Positions 41,536 to 57,110 are shown, counted from the stretch's first letter. The stretch: DNA of 64,000 bases from Candidatus Limnocylindrales bacterium (GCA_036278755.1 DASUKL010000114.1:7659-71658); one strand, 5' to 3'. The notes: generated by a model from the sequence alone, not told the origin. Numbers and translations are program-made.

Positions 41536-42456
41536 TCAGGCTCGACCGACCGTCCGGCGATGGTGGCGCGGCGAGCGCCCCCAGCGCCGCCCGCGATCGA
41601 GGGACCAGGCCGCCCCGGCCAGGGGCATGAGGAGCGCGCCGTATAGCAGGCCGTTGCCGCCGTCGTGCCCATCGCCGCCCGGGCCATGGTCGCCGCTGGA
41701 CGAGCAGGGACGCGGCTCCGACGAGCCGTGCTGGTGACCCGGCGGGCCGTTGCCCGGGCAGGGCACCGGCGGGTGGCAGCCGCTGCCGCCAGGGCCGGGA
41801 TCGGCGCCATCGTGATGGGACGAGCAGGTCGGGGTCGGCGTGCCGGTCGGCCTGGGCGTGGCCTCCGCGGTCGGGCTGACCGTCGGCCTGGGTGTTGGCG
41901 TCGCCTTCGGCGTCGGCTCGGGAGTCGGCGAAGGCGTGTGGTTCGGGGTCGCCTTCGGCGTCGGCTGGGGAGTCGGGCTGGCCGGGGGCTTGGACGTCGC
42001 GCTTGGCCGCGGCGTCGGGCTCGGCCGGTGGGTCGGGCTGCGGCTGGCCGTCGGTCGCGGGGTCGCCTTCGGGGGTGGCGGCGGGTTGGTGGTGCCCTGA
42101 TCGGCGCCGGAGGTCGGTCGGGGCGTCGCGGAGGGGCTCCTCAGGGCCGCCGCCGTGGGCGTGGGCAGCGGGCCGGAGCTCGGGCTGGAAGCCGTGGCCA
42201 CCAGGGTCGGCGAGGGACTCGGGCTGGGAGCCGCTCCTGGCGTCGGCGTCGGGGGGAAGGGCGTGGCGAGGGCGATGGTGGTCGGCGAGGGAGGGGTGAA
42301 GACGAAGGCGGGCGTCGCGCTGGGGCTGGGGCCGAAGGTGGCGGGCGGGCCGCTCAGGCGACCTCCGGCGACGGCCAGGACGGCGGCCACGATCGCGACG
42401 TTCAGCAGACCCAGCGCCAGCACCAGGCGGGCTCGTTGGCCCGCCGTGAGATTCAC
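41536..42456 (-). CDS. Pro/Thr/Ser-rich cell-surface protein: N-terminal signal/anchor, ~200-aa PT-repeat linker, Cys/His/Gly-rich segment, C-terminal hydrophobic helix plus basic tail (GlyGly-CTERM-like)
   Basis: MNLTAGQRARLVLALGLLNVAIVAAVLAVAGG...(PTPKATP-type repeats)...CSSHHDGADPGPGGSGCHPPVPCPGNGPPGHQHG...GGNGLLYGALLMPLAGAAWSLDRGRRWGRSPRHHRR. High GC3 in this frame supports coding. The other frames are Arg-rich junk. Confidence 0.5.
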   Translation of the reverse strand: MNLTAGQRARLVLALGLLNVAIVAAVLAVAGGRLSGPPATFGPSPSATPAFVFTPPSPTTIALATPFPPTPTPGAAPSPSPSPTLVATASSPSSGPLPTPTAAALRSPSATPRPTSGADQGTTNPPPPPKATPRPTASRSPTHRPSPTPRPSATSKPPASPTPQPTPKATPNHTPSPTPEPTPKATPTPRPTVSPTAEATPRPTGTPTPTCSSHHDGADPGPGGSGCHPPVPCPGNGPPGHQHGSSEPRPCSSSGDHGPGGDGHDGGNGLLYGALLMPLAGAAWSLDRGRRWGRSPRHHRRTVGRA

Positions 42457-42588: not shown

Positions 42589-43212
42589 TCAGCCCGGCAG
42601 GCCCTCGGCGATCGCTTCGCTTCCGGCCGCGACGCGGTCCCCGAGCCGCCCCGTCCAGAGCGAGACATAGCGGGGCGCCGCGGCGTCCAGGTGGCTGCGG
42701 TAGAGCCGCAGGCGGTCCACCCGCCAGCCGATCACGGGGCCGTCGTCCACGACCGTCTCGAGCCACTGCGGCAGATCAGCCGGGGCGCGCCGGGCGACCG
42801 TGAGGTGGACCCGCACCGCTCCCGCCGGCCGGCCCGGGTCGACCAGGGCCAGGGGCGCCACCGCAGCCTCCACCGCTCGGGCCAGCGAGACCACCTGGGC
42901 CGTGCCCTCCGGATCGAGGCCCAGCCAGCAGACGCGCGGCCGGGCCGCTGCGCGGCCGAAGGCGCCGCTCCCGCTGAGCCGGACGTCGAAGGGGTCGCGG
43001 GTCGCCGCGAGGCGGGTCAGGGCGGCCCGGATGTCCGGCACGCGCTCGGGCGGCTGCTGGCCCAGGAAACGGAGTGTCAGGTGCAGCCGCTCGGGCGGCA
43101 CCCAGTGAGCCTCGGGGCGGCGATCACGCAGGCCCGCGAGCCGCTCCTCGAGGGTAGCCAGCGCCGGTCCCGGCAGGGGTGCGGCGACGAACAGGCGCCA
43201 TCCGCGGTTCAT
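42589..43212 (-). CDS. RNA 2',3'-cyclic phosphodiesterase (2'-5' RNA ligase LigT/ThpR family)
   Basis: Two H-x-T/S-x motifs (HLTLRFLG; HLTVAR) in a ~200-aa protein. Confidence 0.8.
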   Translation of the reverse strand: MNRGWRLFVAAPLPGPALATLEERLAGLRDRRPEAHWVPPERLHLTLRFLGQQPPERVPDIRAALTRLAATRDPFDVRLSGSGAFGRAAARPRVCWLGLDPEGTAQVVSLARAVEAAVAPLALVDPGRPAGAVRVHLTVARRAPADLPQWLETVVDDGPVIGWRVDRLRLYRSHLDAAAPRYVSLWTGRLGDRVAAGSEAIAEGLPG

Positions 43213-50139: not shown

Positions 50140-52137
50140 TCAGGCGGGGCTGGGCGACGGCTTGGGGGCCGGCGCCGTGACCGGCGGGGCGGGCATCTGG
50201 CGTGGCGTCAGTCCGGGCTCCAGGGGTCGCGGCGTGGGGCCGCCCTGCTGGCGCGGGTCGGGGATGTCGGCGAAGAGGCCCTCGAACGCTTCGCGCTCGA
50301 CCGTCTCCTCGGCCACCAGCTTCTCGGCCAGCGTCACGAGGCGATCCTTGTACCTCGTCAGGACGTCCATAGCCCGGGCATAGCCCCGGTCGATGATGGC
50401 CCGCACCTCTTCGTCGATGACCTTGGCCACATCGTCGGAGTAGTTGCGCTGCTCGCCGATCTCACGACCCAGGAAGACGAGCTCGTCGCGCTTGCCGAAG
50501 CTCAGCGGGCCGAGCTTCTCGCTCATGCCGAACTCGGTCACCATGCGGCGGGCCAGGTTGGTCGCCTTCTCGATGTCGTTCGAGGCGCCGGTCGTGGTGT
50601 CGCCGAAGATGAGCTTCTCCGAGGCGTTGCCCCCCAGCAGGCCGGCGATCTTGTCCTCGAACTCCGTCTTGCTCTGGAGATAGCGGTCCTCGGAGGGCAG
50701 GGCCATGGTGTAGCCCAGGGCCATGCCCCGGCTGATGATCGTCACCTTGTTGACCGGATCGCACTTGGGCAGGATGCGCTGGACCACGGCGTGACCGCCC
50801 TCGTGGTAGGCGATGATCGCCTTCTCCTCGTCGGAGATGATGCGGCTCTTCCGCTCGGGCCCGGCCACGACGCGCTCCAGGGCCTCGCTGAACTCGGTCG
50901 TGCCGATGACCTTCTTGTTGCGCCGCGCGGCGAGGATGGCCGACTCGTTGACGAGGTTGGCCAGGTCCGCCCCGGAGAAGCCCGGCGACTGGCGGGCGAT
51001 GACCTGCAGGTCGATGGACTTGTCGAGCGGCTTGCCTTTGACGTGGACCTTGAGGATCTCCAGGCGGCCTTTCATGTCCGGCCGATCGAGGATGACTTGG
51101 CGATCGAAGCGGCCGGGCCGCAGGAGCGCCGGGTCGAGGACGTCCGGTCGGTTGGTGGCAGCCACGACGATGACGTTCGTGTTCGTGTCGAAGCCGTCCA
51201 TCTCGACCAGGATCTGGTTGAGGGTCTGCTCGCGCTCGTCATGGGACCCGCCGAGGCCGGCGCCGCGCTGGCGGCCGACCGCGTCGATCTCGTCGACGAA
51301 GACGATACAGGGGCTGTTGCGCTTGGCCTGGTCGAAGAGGTCGCGGACGCGGCTGGCGCCGACGCCCACGAACATCTCCACGAACTCGGAGCCGGAGATG
51401 CTGAAGAACGGCACCCCGGCCTCGCCCGCGACGGCCCGGGCGAGGAGGGTCTTCCCGGTGCCTGGCGGCCCGACCAGCAACACGCCCCGCGGGATGCGGG
51501 CCCCCAGCGAGTTGAACTTCTCGGGGTATTTGAGGAACTCGACGACCTCCTGGAGCTCCGTCTTGGCCTCATCCACGCCGGCCACGTCGTTGAACGTGAC
51601 GACGGTCTTGTTGCCGAGGAACATCCGGGCCCGACTCTTGCCGAAGCTCATGGCCTGGTTGTTGGTGCCCTGGGCCTGGCGGAACATGATGAACAGGAAG
51701 GCGCCGATGACGACGACCGGCAGGACGGTCATGAGCAGCAGGCCCAGCCACTGGCTGGTCTGGGACTCGGGCTGGGCGAAGAGGGGCGGGATGCCGTTGG
51801 TGCAGGAAGCGCCCGGCTCGGCGCAGGCGGCCTGCATGTCGTCGGTCACGCCCTCCCCCAGGCTGCCCGGCACTTCGCTCTGGACTTCCGTCTGGCCGTC
51901 GGCCAGGGCCGAGGTCAGGGTGATGTCCAGCTGCGTGCCCTGCTGGACGACCTTGGCCACCTTGCCCTCCTTGACGAGGTCAAGGAAGGAGGTGACGCTG
52001 CCGGCGCCCGAGCCGGTGCCGGCGTAGGGGATCGTCGCTGTCTGGGGAGGGGTGAAGACGGTGATGAACAACAGCACCGCGATGCCCATCACCAGGATGA
52101 GCGTGACGATGCCATTGCGGAGGAAACGGGTATTCAA
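50140..52137 (-). CDS. ftsH: ATP-dependent zinc metalloprotease FtsH
   Basis: N-terminal TMs, AAA module ([32 protein letters not shown]), SRH, HEGGHAV zinc site. Apparent TTG start at 52137 with GGAGG upstream. Confidence 0.92.
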
Positions 52138-52312
52138 GGGATGCGAGCCTCCGGAGGCGAGGTCAGCGCCGACCGTGCGGACGCGATGCCGGCAGGCTGA
52201 TTATAGGTCGGCCGCCTGACCTGCCCTGTGGTACGCAAGGACCAGGGGGTCCGGATTGTCGGGTGGCAGGCCGCCGTGACCGCACCGGCAGCGACTGCGA
52301 AGGCTTCAGGGT

Positions 52313-52387
52313 TGGTAGCGGAGGGCGGATTCGAACCACCGACCAAGGGCTTATGAGTCCCCTGCTCTACCACTGAGCTACTCCGCC
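52313..52387 (-). tRNA. tRNA-Met (anticodon CAT), CCA encoded
   Basis: Reverse complement GGCGGAGTAGCTCAGTGGTAGAGCAGGGGACTCATAAGCCCTTGGTCGGTGGTTCGAATCCGCCCTCCGCTACCA folds as a cloverleaf: 7-bp acceptor (G1-U72), D arm GCTC/GAGC, anticodon loop CTCATAA, T arm GGTGG/CCGCC. Initiator versus elongator (or Ile-CAU) not resolved. Confidence 0.8.
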
Positions 52388-52449
52388 GCGGTCGCCGATT
52401 CTAGCCTGGAAGGCCGGATGGCTGCCACCCGTGGCTCGTCCGCCTGGGT

Positions 52450-52558
52450 CCGGGGGGCGGTGCCGCCGGGCGTGACGATCGGGGGCTGGGCCGGGGGGCC
52501 GTGCCGCCGGGCGTGACATTCGGGGGCCGGGCCGGGGGGCCGTGCCGCCGGGCGAGAC
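52450..52558. repeat. 41-bp tandem direct repeat, ~2.7 copies (CGGGGGGCCGTGCCGCCGGGCGTGACATTCGGGGGCCGGGC)
   Basis: Copies at 52450-52490, 52491-52531 and a partial at 52532-52558, differing at 4-5 positions. Each contains GGGCGTGAC / GGGCGAGAC. Confidence 0.7.
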
Positions 52559-52667
52559 AAGCGCCGAACGGACCGCCGCTTGGCAGGCGGATGGTGCGCC
52601 GGGCGTGACGGAGGACCGCTGGAGCGCCCCGCGGTCTCGCGTGGCGTGACGCACGACCGTCGGCGCG

Positions 52668-52770
52668 CCGGCCGATCACCACTTGTACCGCGGAGCGTGA
52701 CAGGGCGGCGCGGGCGCCGGCGGCCGATCACCACTTGTACCGCGGAGCGAGACAGGGCCGGCCGGGGCGC
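52668..52770. repeat. 51-bp direct repeat, 2 copies (GGCCGATCACCACTTGTACCGCGGAGCG[T/A]GACAGGGC)
   Basis: Copies at ~52668-52706 and 52719-52757. Continues the ~41/51-bp periodic GCGTGAC/GCGAGAC motif series (8 occurrences from 52471 to 52779). Confidence 0.6.
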
Positions 52771-52805
52771 GTGACGCAGCCCATGTACGCCGCCCAGGCG
52801 TTCCC

Positions 52806-53315
52806 TCAGGGGCCGAAGAGGAGGTCGAGCCAGGCTCCCAGCGGCGTCGCGGGGGCCGGCCTGGTGGCCCGGGCGCCGAGCGGGGTGATCGGTCGAGGCG
52901 ACGGTGCGTCGGAGGCCAGGGCGAAGGGCCGTTCTCCGGGGGCACCCACGCCGTAGGCTCGGGCCTGGAGGTGGATGAAGGTCTGGCTCTGAACGGTGGC
53001 GAGCTCGGTCTGCTCCTCGGCCAGGCGCTCCTCCTGCACCGCGTTGGCCGCCCGGAGCTGGGCGGCGTGGGCCTGGGCGGCCGAGGTCGTGGCCACGGCC
53101 CGGCCGAAGATGAAGATGATCCAGGCCATCAGCAGGAGGCCGACCACGAGCGCCGCCTGGCGAGCGTGGAGGCCGATGATCGGCGGGGCGACGAACGGGG
53201 GTCGAGGGCCGCCTCCCTGATCCTGCGGACCGCCGCTCGGCGGCCCTGTCGGGGAGGTTCCGCGGCCGCGGCTCCCGGAGGTTCGGCGCGGCAGCGGCGC
53301 GGGTCGCGCATCCAT
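52806..53315 (-). CDS. Septum-formation initiator family protein (FtsB/DivIC-like) with Pro/Gly-rich N-terminal extension
   Basis: Single TM (ALVVGLLLMAWIIFIFG) followed by a coiled coil (AAQAHAAQLRAANAVQEERLAEEQTELATVQSQ). Confidence 0.6.
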   Translation of the reverse strand: MDARPAPLPRRTSGSRGRGTSPTGPPSGGPQDQGGGPRPPFVAPPIIGLHARQAALVVGLLLMAWIIFIFGRAVATTSAAQAHAAQLRAANAVQEERLAEEQTELATVQSQTFIHLQARAYGVGAPGERPFALASDAPSPRPITPLGARATRPAPATPLGAWLDLLFGP

Positions 53316-53324
53316 CGGCGCGAT

Positions 53325-53344
53325 GCTAGCTGCGCGCAGCTAGC
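53325..53344. promoter_or_regulatory. Perfect 20-bp palindrome GCTAGCTGCGCGCAGCTAGC in the divergent divIC-like / helicase intergenic region
   Basis: 10+10 nt perfect inverted repeat with no spacer, 10 bp upstream of the divIC-like start codon. Confidence 0.35.
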
Positions 53345-53409: not shown

Positions 53410-53423
53410 CGAACGTCCGTTCG
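53410..53423. promoter_or_regulatory. Candidate LexA (Cheo-type) SOS box CGAAC-GTCC-GTTCG overlapping the promoter of the MrfA-like helicase gene
   Basis: Perfect GAAC-N4-GTTC dyad 4 nt upstream of the GGAGG Shine-Dalgarno sequence and 14 nt upstream of ATG 53437. Confidence 0.45.
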
Positions 53424-53436
53424 TTTCGGAGGATCG

Positions 53437-55737
53437 ATGCGCCTCTACGCTCCGGCCCCCACCGAGCATGCCGTCGAGCAGCTGCTGTCCGATCCCGCCT
53501 TCCGGGCAGCGGTGGTCGCGGATCGGCTGGTGCCTGCTCGGCAGGCTGCCCTGGCCCCCTTCCCGGCCTGGCTCGATCCACGGCTGGTGGCGGGCCTCCG
53601 GGCCCAGGGGATCGAGGCCCTCTACAGCCATCAGGCGGAGGCCATGGAGGCCTTGCGGGCAGGGCTCGACGTGACCGTCGTCACGGCCACCGCCTCGGGC
53701 AAGTCGCTGTGTTACGACCTCCCGGTCCTCCAGGACGTAGCCCAGGATCCGGCCGTCCGGGCCCTCTACATCTTCCCCACCAAGGCCCTCAGCCAGGACC
53801 AGGCCGCCGGCCTGCACGAGCTGGCTCGGGCCGCCGGCATCGACCTGGCCGCGGCGGTCTACGACGGCGACACGCCGGCCCCCGTCCGCTCCTCGATCCG
53901 GGCCGCCGGGCAGGTCGTGCTCACGAACCCGGACATGCTGCACGCCGCGATCCTGCCCCACCACACCAAGTGGTTCCAGCTCTTCGAGCAGCTGCGCTAC
54001 ATCGTCATCGACGAGGCCCACACCTACCGCGGCGTCTTCGGCAGCCATGTGGCCAACGTCATCCGCCGGCTGCTGCGTCTGTGTGCCCACTACGGCTCCG
54101 CGCCGCGGATCGTCACCTGCTCGGCCACCATCGGCCGGCCCGACGCCCTCGTCGAGCGCCTCACCGGCCGGCCCAGCCGGGTCATCGAGCGGGACGGATC
54201 GCCGGCCGGCCCCCGCCGCATCCTGGTCATCGACCCGCCCCTCCTCGACGAGCGCCTAGGGCTGCGACGCGGGACGTTCGGCTTCGTCGAACAGGCCGCC
54301 CTGACCTTCATGCGGGCCGGACGCCAGACGCTGGTCTTCGGTCGCTCCCGCACCTCGGTCGAGCTGCTCCTGAGCCGGCTCCGGGAGGCCCTCCGCGAGG
54401 GTCACGGGCCCTCGGAGCGAATCCGCGGCTACCGCGGCGGCTACCTGCCCACGGAGCGGCGGGCCATCGAGGCCGGCCTGCGCGACGGCTCCCTGCTGGG
54501 CGTGGTGAGCACGAACGCCCTCGAGCTCGGCGTCGATATCGGCCGCCTCGACGCCGCGGTGCTGGCCGGCTACCCCGGCTCGATCGCCGCCACGTGGCAG
54601 CAATTCGGGCGGGCCGGACGGCGTGGCGAGGCCAGCGTGGCCATCCTCGTGGCCACGGGTGGCGCCGTCGATCGATTCGTGGCCCGTCATCCGGACTACC
54701 TCTTCTCCGCCTCACCCGAGGAAGCCCGGCTCGACCCCGACAACCTCCACGTGCTGCTGGCCCACCTGCGGGCGGCCACGTTCGAGCTGCCCTTCGCCCC
54801 AGGCGAGCGCTTCGGCGACCAGCCGGCCGACGAGCTGCTGGCCTTCCTGGCCGAGGAGGGCCATGTCCGCCAGGCGGGCGACGGACGCTGGTACTGGGCC
54901 AGCGAGAACTTCCCCGCCTCGGAGATCCCCCTGCGTACGAGCGCCACGGAGAACGTGGTCATCATCGACCAGGGCCCCCTGGGCCGAGGCGCCCGACCCG
55001 CGGTCATCGGCGAGGTCGACCTCTTCAGTGCCCCGACCCTCGTGCACCAGGGCGCCATCTACCTCCACGAGGCACGCCAGTACCACGTCGAGCGGCTGGA
55101 CTGGGAGGAGCGCAAGGCCTATGTCCGGCCCGTCGACGTCGACCACTTCACCCAGGCCGAGGCGGCCATCACCCTGAAGCCGCTGGAGACGTTCGCCACG
55201 GCCCCGGGGCCGGGCGGCGAGCGGGCCCACGGCGAGGTCATGGTCAGCTCCCTGGCCACGATCTACAAGAAGCTGCGCCTGGAGACCCTGGAGAACCTGG
55301 GTTGGGGGCGGATCCACCTGCCCGAGATCGAGTCGCACACGACCGCCTACTGGCTGGCGGTGGACCCGGCGGCGGTGGCTGGCTGGCGCCGCGATGCTCT
55401 CGACGCGGCCCTCGTGGGCGCGGGGCGGGCCATGCGGACCGTGGCCTGCGTCCTGCTGATGAGCGACCCACGGGACCTGGGCCTCGTCAGCCAAGTCCGC
55501 TCGCCGCACTTCGAGCGGCCGGTCATCTATCTCTATGACGGGGTGCCCGGCGGGGTCGGCCTCTCGAACCGGCTCTTCGCCCGCCACGCCGAGCTCGTGG
55601 CGGGCGCCCGGGCGCTGGTCGACGACTGCCCCTGCAGCGGCGGCTGTCCGGCCTGCATCGGGCCGCGAGTGGAGGCCGGAGGGGAGGCCAAGGCCGGCAC
55701 CGGGCGCCTGCTGGCGCTCTTCGCCGCGGGGTCGTGA
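53437..55737 (+). CDS. DEAD/DEAH-box helicase with C-terminal DUF1998 zinc-binding domain (MrfA/YprA-like DNA repair helicase)
   Basis: Motif I TATASGKSL, DEAH (VIDEAHTYRG), SAT (CSATIG), motif VI QQFGRAGRRG. C-terminal DUF1998 with DDCPCSGGCPACIGP four-Cys cluster. Confidence 0.85.
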   Translation: MRLYAPAPTEHAVEQLLSDPAFRAAVVADRLVPARQAALAPFPAWLDPRLVAGLRAQGIEALYSHQAEAMEALRAGLDVTVVTATASGKSLCYDLPVLQDVAQDPAVRALYIFPTKALSQDQAAGLHELARAAGIDLAAAVYDGDTPAPVRSSIRAAGQVVLTNPDMLHAAILPHHTKWFQLFEQLRYIVIDEAHTYRGVFGSHVANVIRRLLRLCAHYGSAPRIVTCSATIGRPDALVERLTGRPSRVIERDGSPAGPRRILVIDPPLLDERLGLRRGTFGFVEQAALTFMRAGRQTLVFGRSRTSVELLLSRLREALREGHGPSERIRGYRGGYLPTERRAIEAGLRDGSLLGVVSTNALELGVDIGRLDAAVLAGYPGSIAATWQQFGRAGRRGEASVAILVATGGAVDRFVARHPDYLFSASPEEARLDPDNLHVLLAHLRAATFELPFAPGERFGDQPADELLAFLAEEGHVRQAGDGRWYWASENFPASEIPLRTSATENVVIIDQGPLGRGARPAVIGEVDLFSAPTLVHQGAIYLHEARQYHVERLDWEERKAYVRPVDVDHFTQAEAAITLKPLETFATAPGPGGERAHGEVMVSSLATIYKKLRLETLENLGWGRIHLPEIESHTTAYWLAVDPAAVAGWRRDALDAALVGAGRAMRTVACVLLMSDPRDLGLVSQVRSPHFERPVIYLYDGVPGGVGLSNRLFARHAELVAGARALVDDCPCSGGCPACIGPRVEAGGEAKAGTGRLLALFAAGS

Positions 55738-57110
55738 CCACCGAGCTGGCACGCCCGAGCCCGACGCTCGGGCCCATGGAGCCCACGGCCGCGTCCACCC
55801 TGGCCGCCCGCTTGACCCGGCTCCGAGCCCTGGACACCCGCCTGCGGCCGGCGTCCGAGCTGCCCCGCCCGGCGGCCCGCGCCCCGGCGGGTCCGCTCGT
55901 CGCTGCGGCGCGCCGCACCCGCCTGGCCGAAGCACTGGGGGGCAAGCTGCTGGACACCCCGGCGGGATCGATCGTGGTCGTCGAGCGCGACGTGCCCTTG
56001 CCCTTCGACCCGCTACCGCTCCGGGCGCTCCCCTTCCCCATCGACGCCGACCGGCCCCTGATCATGCTCGACACCGAGACGACGGGCCTGGGCAGCGGCG
56101 CCGGGACCCTGGCATTCTTGGTGGGGCTCGCCTCCTGGAGCGGGGATCGTCTCCATGTCCGCCAACTCTGGCTGGCCGACCAGCCCGAGGAGCCTGCCCT
56201 CCTCGACGCCCTGGCTGCCTCTCTGCCACCGGACGGCTGGCTGGTCACCTACAACGGGCGGGCCTTCGACTGGCCCCTGCTCATCACCCGCTACCGGCTC
56301 CAGCGCCGCAGCCCGCCCCCGCTGGCCGGCCATCTCGACCTCCTGCCGGTGGCCCGCCAGCTGTGGCGCCACCGCCTACCCGATGCCCGGCTGGCCAGCG
56401 TGGAAGCTGGCGTGGCGGGCGTGCGGCGAGGCACGGACCTGCCCGGAGCCCTCGTGCCGGAGCGGTTCCTGCGCTTCCTCCGCGATGGGGATCCGCGGCC
56501 CCTCGTGCCGGTCGGTGAGCACAACCGCCAGGACGTCATCTCCCTGGGTCTGCTGCTGGTCGTCCTGGCCGAGGTCCTGGCCCGGCCCGAGGGCCGGAGC
56601 CGGGCGGCGGCCGGCGACCTGGTCGGCCTGGGGCGCGCCTTCGAGCGAGCCGGCCAGGCCGCTGAGGCGCTGGCCTGCCACGAGGCCGCCCTGGAGCGCG
56701 CCGCTCCGCTCGACCGTAGGGACGGACGGGCCGTGGCCCGACCCGGTGGTCGGCTGCCGACCCTCGATCCGGCCCTCGAACGAGCCCGCCTGCTGCGCCG
56801 CATGGGTCGACGGAGCGAGGCCCTCGAAGCCTGGCGGGCCATCGCCGCCGAAGGCGGGCGACGAGCGATCGGGGCCTGGATCGCCGTGGCCAAGGAGCTC
56901 GAGCACGGAGCTCACGACCCAGCCGCGGCCCTCGAGGCGGTGCGCCAGGCCGAGCAGCTGCTGGCCCGCCGCCGGGCCCTCGGCCTCTTCTTCCGCGAGG
57001 CCGAGCGCGACCTGCCCTACCGCCGGGCGCGGCTCCTGCGGCGGCTGGCCTCGGCGCCGGCTTCGGCTCCGCCCGCGGCCCCAGCCTCCGCCTCGGTCGC
57101 CAGCGGGTAG
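55734..57110 (+). CDS. DEDD-type (RNase T/DnaQ-like) exonuclease with C-terminal TPR-like helical region (MrfB/YprB-like)
   Basis: Exo I motif LIMLDTETTGL, then YNGRAFDWPLL (Exo II-like) and H-x4-D (GEHNRQD). Alanine-rich helical C-terminus. GTGA overlap with the helicase stop. Confidence 0.7.
   Translation: MTTELARPSPTLGPMEPTAASTLAARLTRLRALDTRLRPASELPRPAARAPAGPLVAAARRTRLAEALGGKLLDTPAGSIVVVERDVPLPFDPLPLRALPFPIDADRPLIMLDTETTGLGSGAGTLAFLVGLASWSGDRLHVRQLWLADQPEEPALLDALAASLPPDGWLVTYNGRAFDWPLLITRYRLQRRSPPPLAGHLDLLPVARQLWRHRLPDARLASVEAGVAGVRRGTDLPGALVPERFLRFLRDGDPRPLVPVGEHNRQDVISLGLLLVVLAEVLARPEGRSRAAAGDLVGLGRAFERAGQAAEALACHEAALERAAPLDRRDGRAVARPGGRLPTLDPALERARLLRRMGRRSEALEAWRAIAAEGGRRAIGAWIAVAKELEHGAHDPAAALEAVRQAEQLLARRRALGLFFREAERDLPYRRARLLRRLASAPASAPPAAPASASVASG

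Follow-up and report, generated by a model that had tools for sequence, protein, structure and literature searches.

A conserved array of partly dyad boxes upstream of tRNA-Met in a Limnocylindrales lineage and its possible role as an operator array

The mycobacterial interspersed repetitive units (MIRU) are intergenic variable-number tandem repeats (VNTR) with units of ~50-100 bp, and the pneumococcal BOX element (boxA-boxB(n)-boxC) contains a variable number of ~45-bp boxB units, is present in many genomic copies and forms stable RNA or DNA folds. The FIS sites of the upstream activating sequences (UAS) of Escherichia coli, each a degenerate 15-bp sequence with an AT-rich centre, form a bent or looped activating complex. 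At the tRNA and rRNA promoters of this species the upstream FIS sites lie in helical register, and FIS has been proposed to prefer a repeat of ~10.2 bp (PMC8099737). In the sopC centromere of the F plasmid there are 12 direct repeats of 43 bp, and SopB, which is dimeric, recognises a 16-bp inverted repeat in every one of them (PMC3177203). Here we analyse a repeat array situated between an FtsB/DivIC-like gene and a tRNA-Met gene in 64,000 nucleotides of DNA from an uncultured soil member of the Chloroflexota, Candidatus Limnocylindrales bacterium (GCA_036278755.1 DASUKL010000114.1:7659-71658), a stretch with 72.8% G+C that we call the window.

Our reading, a tentative one to which we give a probability of about 40%, is that the array is a lineage-specific cis-regulatory operator array for a putative dimeric DNA-binding protein acting on the tRNA-Met promoter. 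We favour it because the box is the only part kept among the old units, it is partly dyad, the spacing follows whole helical turns, the promoter has no -35 element and the array appears to be under selection. Transcriptional control in the Limnocylindria, an abundant uncultured class of soil and freshwater Chloroflexota, is almost wholly uncharted.

Anatomy of the array and its place at the tRNA-Met promoter

The array and the elements between it and the tRNA are the following:

52436-52775 (340 bases), minus strand: whole array, units U0 to U7, all in the orientation of the tRNA and each opening with a 17-bp box
52754-52775, minus strand: U0, a 22-nt unit (GTCACGCGCCCCGGCCGGCCCT) with the heptad only and no right arm
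52702-52753, minus strand: U1, a 52-nt unit, 90% identical to U2
52651-52701, minus strand: U2, a 51-nt unit with box GTCACGCTCCGCGGTAC and a unique spacer
52610-52650, minus strand: U3, a 41-nt unit with box GTCACGC-CAC-GCGAGAC
52559-52609, minus strand: U4, a 51-nt unit whose box has a 1-nt deletion (GTCACGCCCGGCG-CAC)
52436-52558, minus strand: U5 to U7, three tandem 41-nt units, 76-100% identical among themselves
52421-52435, minus strand: weak ninth half-box GCCACGGGTGGCAGC (GCCACGG...), 41 bp downstream of the U7 box start
52398-52403, minus strand: TAGAAT, the -10 element of the tRNA-Met promoter, a GCGCTAGAATC-like sequence lying at an equal distance from the tRNA in many Limnocylindria loci

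The box has the consensus GTCWCGC-nCs-GCGrnAC (17 bp) and is followed by a spacer of 24-35 nt. Its positions 1, 2, 5, 6 and 7 mirror positions 17, 16, 13, 12 and 11, a partial dyad that is most symmetric in U3 (6 of 7 arm positions), and the resulting pattern GTnnCGC-N3-GCGnnAC suggests that the candidate protein binds as a dimer. The skeleton GTNNCGC-N3-GCGNNAC is found 6 times in the window, always inside the array, against an expectation of 0.36; there is a single occurrence in 670 kb of related Chloroflexota loci, and each orthologous array has 3-4. Between the four unit families the identity is 76% over the 17-nt box and 31%, which is the random level, over the next 24 nt. U5, U6 and U7 are evidently recent tandem copies, and U1 is, to judge from the alignments, a recent duplication or conversion in the window lineage, the relatives holding an old diverged copy at that place.

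An earlier note on this DNA had described a repeat array between the tRNA-Met 5' end (52387) and the DivIC-like stop (52806). The array is real: ARAGORN and Rfam confirm the tRNA, the open reading frame (ORF) confirms the stop and Tandem Repeats Finder (TRF) recovers the repeats. The eight same-strand sites and the one inverted copy reported there are also present: GCGWGAC occurs 8 times on the plus strand (exact starts at 52470, 52511, 52552, 52603, 52644, 52695, 52747 and 52769) and once inverted, at 52634-52640, where it forms the right arm of the U3 box, all within 306 bp. Six of the positions originally given were 1 too high and the last had been placed at 52779; in the same way, the first five spacings (41, 41, 51, 41 and 51 bp) hold, but the last two are 52 and 22 bp rather than 51 and 32. 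Regarding the two tandem families, the 41-bp period is recovered by TRF (x2.8 at 52444-52560, 90% matches), whereas the second period is 52 bp and not 51 (x2.1 at 52662-52770, 89% matches), both being among only three arrays that score at least 70 in the 64 kb. The units had been called contiguous and without unique spacers, which describes well the triple 41-bp repeat and the pair of 52-bp copies but not U2, U3 and U4, whose spacers of 24-35 nt are unrelated.

Over its full length the window has fewer heptamers than expected (31 GCGWGAC sites, 44 expected), and 9 of the 31 lie in the array; with the tandem copies counted as 5 independent unit families, this clustering has a Poisson p of ~3e-9. 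We concur that the array does not resemble clustered regularly interspaced short palindromic repeats (CRISPR), which have near-identical repeats of 23-47 bp, unique spacers that turn over fast, and cas genes or a leader, given that the 17-bp box is only 76% alike between unit families and that no cas gene is found among the neighbours scanned with Pfam (~20 genes, about 37-60.5 kb of the window). Moreover, its 24-35 nt spacers include three duplicates and are conserved between lineages.

The promoter itself is clear in its downstream half. Its -10 region GCTAGAATC (GGCTAGAATCGG) is situated ~10 nt upstream of tRNA-Met, and a GCGCTAGAATC-like -10 is found in loci with the array and in loci without it, but the promoter has no convincing -35 element. 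The array ends ~30 bp upstream of TAGAAT, that is, directly upstream of a stable-RNA promoter as the sites of a FIS-type UAS do. If the transcription start is taken ~7 nt after the -10, the boxes would span roughly -85 to -385 and the half-box about -44 to -30. This half-box overlies the expected -35 position, matches 10 of 15 box positions and is kept in the array-bearing relatives; as a further site it is a lead only. The promoter scan gave no promoter-like or terminator-like sites inside the array. It had been proposed that the embedded GTGACA and GAGACA hexamers resemble -35 elements; we discard this, as their strand is not that of the tRNA and the scan detected no -35/-10 pair within the array. 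A TGGCAG-N5-CGGC sequence near the -35 position, sigma-54-like by eye, was rejected as well, being not kept in relatives.

Box-to-box distances are either 41 or 51-52 bp, two classes that differ by one helical turn. For the box starts of U1 to U7 we obtained a resultant length of R=0.99 at 10.25 bp/turn and only 0.27 at 10.5, and the boxes of the orthologues gave R = 0.98-1.00 at 10.2-10.3 bp/turn. A random-spacing null is beaten (<=0.0004), but the spacings are non-independent if the units were duplicated, and perhaps only two of them are independent.

Distribution among relatives and selection

The comparison with relatives requires the genes that flank the array:

52806-53315, minus strand: FtsB/DivIC-like gene, 169 aa, with a disordered N-terminus, one transmembrane helix and a coiled coil
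52313-52387, minus strand: tRNA-Met (CAT), predicted by ARAGORN and by Rfam (65.6 bits), 5' end at 52387
50140-52137, minus strand: ftsH, with Pfam matches, downstream of tRNA-Met

On the minus strand the order is therefore FtsB-like gene, a 418-bp spacer, tRNA-Met, a 175-bp spacer and ftsH, and the stop codon of the FtsB-like gene (52806-52808) is the upstream edge of the array-bearing spacer. An MrfA-like helicase, starting at 53437, is divergent from the FtsB-like gene. The FtsB-like ORF of the window has no Pfam match, and some of its homologues carry PF04977 DivIC or the name FtsB; its product matches NCBI HEX5466832.1 (locus tag VFW92_09200), a protein of a Candidatus Limnocylindrales metagenome-assembled genome (MAG), with 100% identity. 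The closest GTDB species representatives are uncultured Limnocylindria (Chloroflexota), with an FtsH identity of at most 80%. Across the Limnocylindria the synteny from tRNA-Met to ftsH is kept, and the tRNA-Met is 98-100% identical in most related loci.

We gathered the relatives by a protein search with the FtsB-like sequence followed by contig look-ups; all sequences are short-read metagenome assemblies, and the array lineages compared are three to four. At least three related lineages carry an orthologous array, recovered from over 20 sequencing runs; the units follow one another in an unchanged order, and the boxes keep their register (51, 41, 51, 41). Soils yielded these contigs, for instance in the studies behind SRR32826132-143, SRR33232046/48 and SRR25158533. 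One contig (L266) provides 88 nt, all of them identical to the window. Another (L081, protein identity 91%) covers the distal 70 nt only, where U0 and the start of U1 are present and the U1 box is different. The second lineage (L082, L083, L262 and L263; protein identity 80%) includes the NCBI MAG GCA_004322035.1, in which the full locus is covered, and the third (L264-type, 69%) is represented by 15 contigs from many runs, all of identical length and with 9 positions of single-nucleotide polymorphism (SNP). U2 aligns with its orthologues without gaps at 79-85% identity, the U4 spacer is 90% identical to its orthologues, and U0 is degenerate in the relatives (GTCACGAC).

Beyond these lineages none of the 80 related genome loci carries the array or a box cluster, and those with the FtsB-like gene directly upstream have a spacer of only ~80-110 bp. 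The array-less loci L084, L089/L090 and L091, whose proteins are 67%, 58% and 57% identical, have spacers of 55-90 bp. Among the array-less sisters is GCA_050695115.1. A search with the FtsH N-terminus for further array-bearing genomes returned nothing above 64% identity. The array could be what is left of a mobile or modular repeat, or a non-autonomous copy of one, comparable to BOX, MIRU or a miniature inverted-repeat transposable element (MITE); the insertion, with the FtsB-like gene on one side and the tRNA promoter on the other, would date from the ancestor of the subclade. The gain of ~270-340 bp over the 55-110 bp spacer of relatives and the modular build with a variable number of internal units would fit. 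Nevertheless, there is no second copy of any unit in the window, and no array was found with a two-box pattern in the metagenomes of the Joint Genome Institute (JGI), with the single box in viral contigs or in the 80 related loci; neither terminal inverted repeats nor a target-site duplication were seen, and no transposase or integrase is among the scanned neighbours. We regard such an origin as improbable.

Copy number varies a little. The 41-bp unit is present three times in the window and in L263 (where one copy is 42 bp) and twice in L082 and in the L264-type lineage. L082 and L263 share one protein cluster, and short-read assemblies may misstate copy number. Of the 52-bp unit the window has two fresh copies, the others one good and one old diverged copy. 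The arrays of relatives differ only slightly, and the 15 contigs of the third lineage share their length. On the whole, the array is clade-restricted and slightly dynamic at its edges, and it is not hypervariable. The earlier note had named a hypervariable minisatellite with no motif conservation as one finding that would overturn its view; the 15 contigs of one lineage, with no length variation and 9 SNPs, are not of that kind.

In order to compare the array with a neutral proxy, its identity was taken over U2-U7 (212 aligned columns, no gaps) and set beside that of the fourfold-degenerate sites of the flanking genes, the relatives' values for these genes being taken on further contigs of each lineage (L263/L262 and L264):

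Window and L082: array 83%, FtsB-like gene 67%, helicase 78%, ftsH 67%
Window and L087: array 85%, FtsB-like gene 50%, helicase 59%
L082 and L087: array 93%, FtsB-like gene 77%, helicase 65%

Against the pooled fourfold sites, Fisher's test gave p=7e-12 for the window and the third lineage and p=0.002 for the window and the second lineage. The tRNA-ftsH spacer has 69% identity with 37 gapped positions, and the first ~100 nt past the FtsB-like stop are 48-66% identical between the window and the others. In terms of aligned sequence, these comparisons show that the array is conserved above the neutral level and is under purifying selection. The near-equal values of 83% and 85%, despite the very different divergence of the flanks, suggest a plateau at which only ~15% of the sites would be free to change.

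A neutral minisatellite has to be weighed here: a GC-rich intergenic segment would have been duplicated by strand slippage or unequal crossing-over, the copies would have gone to fixation in one subclade, and the box would reflect common descent alone. The units are indeed head to tail according to TRF, the 41-bp copy number differs between close relatives (three in the window and L263, two in L082), in the window the 52-bp unit underwent a second duplication or a conversion, even L081, the nearest relative, has a different distal end, sister lineages have the same promoter and no array, and assemblies break inside the array in L262 and L266. However, such a repeat would not be expected to hold an identity of 83-93% where the fourfold sites of three flanking genes have 50-78%, nor to show no indels over 212 columns and no length variation in 15 contigs, and common descent alone does not predict a box at 76% beside spacers at the random level among the old units. 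We consider neutrality quite unlikely. If the array were neutral after all, or RNA-based, repeat arrays in very GC-rich genomes would be far stabler than the word minisatellite implies.

Proposed function of the array

That the array might be a set of binding sites upstream of a tRNA promoter was already suggested in the earlier note, and this hypothesis gains support from the real promoter, the dyad box, the spacing and the selection. Under this operator-array reading, eight operator-like boxes plus the weak half-box over the -35 position would be bound by the candidate protein, and as the boxes are 4 or 5 helical turns apart and range from about -45 to -385 with respect to the promoter, the bound proteins would lie on roughly one face of the helix. 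They might then form a cooperative, possibly wrapped, nucleoprotein complex, which could raise or gate the transcription of tRNA-Met and perhaps the read-through into ftsH. In the ancestor of one Limnocylindrales subclade, a unit made of box and spacer would have been duplicated in tandem to build the array, which may still gain and lose units at its edges. The sequences show the anatomy, the place of the promoter, the conservation above neutral, the restriction to a clade and the lack of coding or RNA-structure signals; we infer the protein binding, the action on transcription and the direction of this action.

Several points weigh against the operator array. No binding protein was found, and there is no regulator gene adjacent among the scanned neighbours; no further copy of the box exists in the 64 kb, and hence nothing points to a regulon or to an autoregulated gene. 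The register is good at 10.25 bp/turn only and not at the canonical 10.5, with maybe just two independent spacings behind it. Array-less relatives keep the same promoter, and therefore the array is not needed for basal function. Recombination blurs the neutral comparison, since the helicase and FtsB-like trees disagree. Above all, conservation is not focused on the boxes: invariant columns make up 86% of the boxes and 77% of the spacers, and polymorphisms are spread over boxes and spacers alike. Something beyond isolated operators also constrains the spacers, and this is the main unexplained point.

Because the spacers are conserved so evenly, a role as unstructured RNA stays alive. The array would then be transcribed, either with the FtsB-like mRNA, as its 3' untranslated region, or as a small RNA of its own, and would act through repeated GUCACGC motifs rather than through structure. 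It could be a sponge that titrates a protein, as CsrB does, or a rut region, C-rich and unstructured, on which Rho loads and halts read-through into the tRNA promoter. A transcript would explain more easily than isolated operators why the whole 270-340 nt, spacers included, are conserved without indels; besides, every box has the orientation of the flanking genes, the stretch from the FtsB-like stop to the array has no terminator-like site, which makes read-through likely, and the sense strand of U5-U7, with 54% C and 30% G, is less stable than shuffled sequence (z +1.2 to +1.6), as a rut region would be. On the other hand, there is no conserved structure, no covariation and no Rfam match at E<=1, the hairpin that can be drawn for U2 of the window is lost in relatives, and the C over G skew is no greater than in the neighbouring coding sequence. 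Rut regions do not normally stay 85-93% identical, the partial dyad of the box would serve no obvious purpose if the RNA is unstructured, and the promoter and terminator scan found neither element bounding a separate small RNA. On balance we think an RNA function unlikely.

Other candidates were tried and rejected, as follows. Regarding a structured RNA, both strands and an orthologue fold no better than shuffled sequences (z +0.6 to +1.6); RNAalifold with 7 sequences gave an unfavourable covariation term (+2.4), many pairs being broken in the window sequence, and the Rfam scan had the tRNA as its sole match, with nothing else at E<=1. A coding sequence was discarded, as the 41- and 52-nt units break the frames, the substitutions have no 3-nt periodicity (10/7/7 and 11/9/7) and long frames are expected at 80% GC. 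Repeats derived from the tRNA or from an attachment site were discarded too, since 253 of 300 shuffles score as high against the tRNA. The alternative idea of the earlier note, degenerate duplications of an attachment site, falls with them: the array has no tRNA similarity and is on the 5' side of the tRNA, no integrase is among the ~20 scanned neighbours, and the flanking genes are syntenic with those of array-less relatives. A type III toxin-antitoxin locus was likewise rejected. ToxI-like RNAs have ~36-nt tandem repeats followed by a terminator and a ToxN-family toxin gene, whereas here the downstream genes are tRNA-Met and ftsH and a terminator was not found.

Within the array, a 92-bp duplication of two units (U2U3 = U4U5) is not established, with 40% spacer identity and a shuffle p=0.13. 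Motif turnover at U3 was dropped because a better alignment keeps the orthologous box in register, and the extra GTCACGC of the relatives is an adjacent upstream heptad. Searches for the box elsewhere gave only chance matches: with 3 mismatches the 17-mer has chance-level matches only in the window outside the array, a two-box pattern had 50 isolated matches in the JGI metagenomes, mostly within coding sequence, and a single box had at least 120 in viral contigs, also isolated and mostly in coding sequence. A literature search for the heptamer gave primer sequences only.

The locus offers a non-coding element that seems selectively maintained, a 17-bp candidate operator and a natural comparison between sister lineages with and without it. 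If the box does bind a protein, it would be a handle on the regulator and an example of a regulatory array recently assembled by tandem duplication.

Surroundings and comparison with known systems

The Pfam-scanned neighbours include the FtsB-like gene, the MrfA-like helicase, FtsH, an M20 peptidase, a DnaB_C/KaiC-like ATPase and MoxR. In the tRNA-Met (52313-52387) we observed an apparent G1-U72 wobble atop the acceptor stem and an A-G mismatch beside the anticodon loop. Further downstream, ftsH has its own conserved -10 region, CGACCTATAATC at 52199-52210 in the tRNA-ftsH spacer, common to L263, L084 and L091; the remainder of that spacer diverges, with indels.

On the other side, the helicase (53437-55737) groups the window with the L262 lineage, with 95% amino-acid identity against 84% to L264. 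In the FtsB-like gene and the array, by contrast, the window is the outlier: its protein identities are 80% and 69%, and L263 and L264 share 82%. These conflicting trees point to a recombination breakpoint near the divergent promoter region.

Two motifs lie in this same region, both conserved in L085 and L081. The first, CGAACGTCCGTTCG at 53410-53423, immediately precedes the ribosome-binding site of the helicase (MrfA-like, DEAD/MZB) and fits the Gram-positive-type LexA 'Cheo box', CGAAC-N4-GTTCG; this fit suggests that the operon of the helicase and an RNase_H_2-like gene (53437-57110) may belong to the SOS response. The second is a perfect 9-N2-9 palindrome, GCTAGCTGC-GC-GCAGCTAGC, at 53325-53344, which overlaps the region's only sigma-70-like match (TTGACA-18-TAGCAT, minus strand, which would drive the FtsB-like gene) and is probably an operator for a different regulator.

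Farther away, ARAGORN called a 94-nt tRNA-Gly (ACC) at 42641-42734, which Rfam does not confirm at its gathering threshold and whose surroundings read as GC-rich coding-like DNA; the call is probably a false positive. The window's third tandem repeat (48 bp x2.2, 78% matches, 41895-42000) is inside an open frame on the plus strand, 41816-42100, which has a high G+C content at third codon positions and no Pfam match.

Among the described systems, sopC has an architecture that is matched here by direct repeats of ~41-52 bp, each with a short dyad, and the array might thus be a centromere-like or iteron-like site of partition or replication. This array, however, unlike sopC, is chromosomal, set between conserved housekeeping genes and beside a tRNA promoter; its units are heterogeneous (41, 51 and 52 bp), no partition genes are among the scanned neighbours (neither ParA, nor ParB, nor Rep in that part of the window), and sister lineages do without it. 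A replication origin was rejected separately, as there is no AT-rich region that could unwind and there are no DnaA boxes, and the GC skew merely tracks gene orientation, all of which also speaks against an iteron. We find a site of this type highly improbable.

With VNTR and MIRU loci the array shares head-to-tail units of 40-50 bp in a high-GC intergenic spacer and some difference in copy number, but it is a single locus and not dispersed, it is conserved above the neutral level and its length is fixed in 15 contigs. With BOX it shares a modular intergenic build and variable internal units, but here there is one copy in 64 kb and no excess folding.

The UAS of rrnB P1 and tyrT are like the array in having multiple sites directly upstream of a tRNA or rRNA promoter; the repeat proposed for FIS binding is ~10.2 bp, and the register here is good at 10.25 bp only. 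Nevertheless, the box is a GC-rich 17-mer with a CGC-N3-GCG core and does not agree with the FIS consensus, there are 8 sites in 340 bp at a pitch of 41-52 bp instead of 3 sites at ~30 bp, and the sites here seem to have arisen by tandem duplication. No FIS is known in the Chloroflexota. A bolder proposal, which we hold to be rather doubtful, is that the subclade independently evolved an enhancer-like UAS in which the eight dyad boxes, in a 10.25-bp register, would wrap around an oligomer of a DNA-binding protein specific to the lineage, so that the expression of tRNA-Met, and possibly of ftsH, would follow a physiological signal. If this were true, the Chloroflexota would have in the array a counterpart of growth-rate control by FIS that arose de novo through tandem duplication. 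By analogy, then, the array may work like a FIS UAS but outside that family, since both the type of site and the phylum differ.

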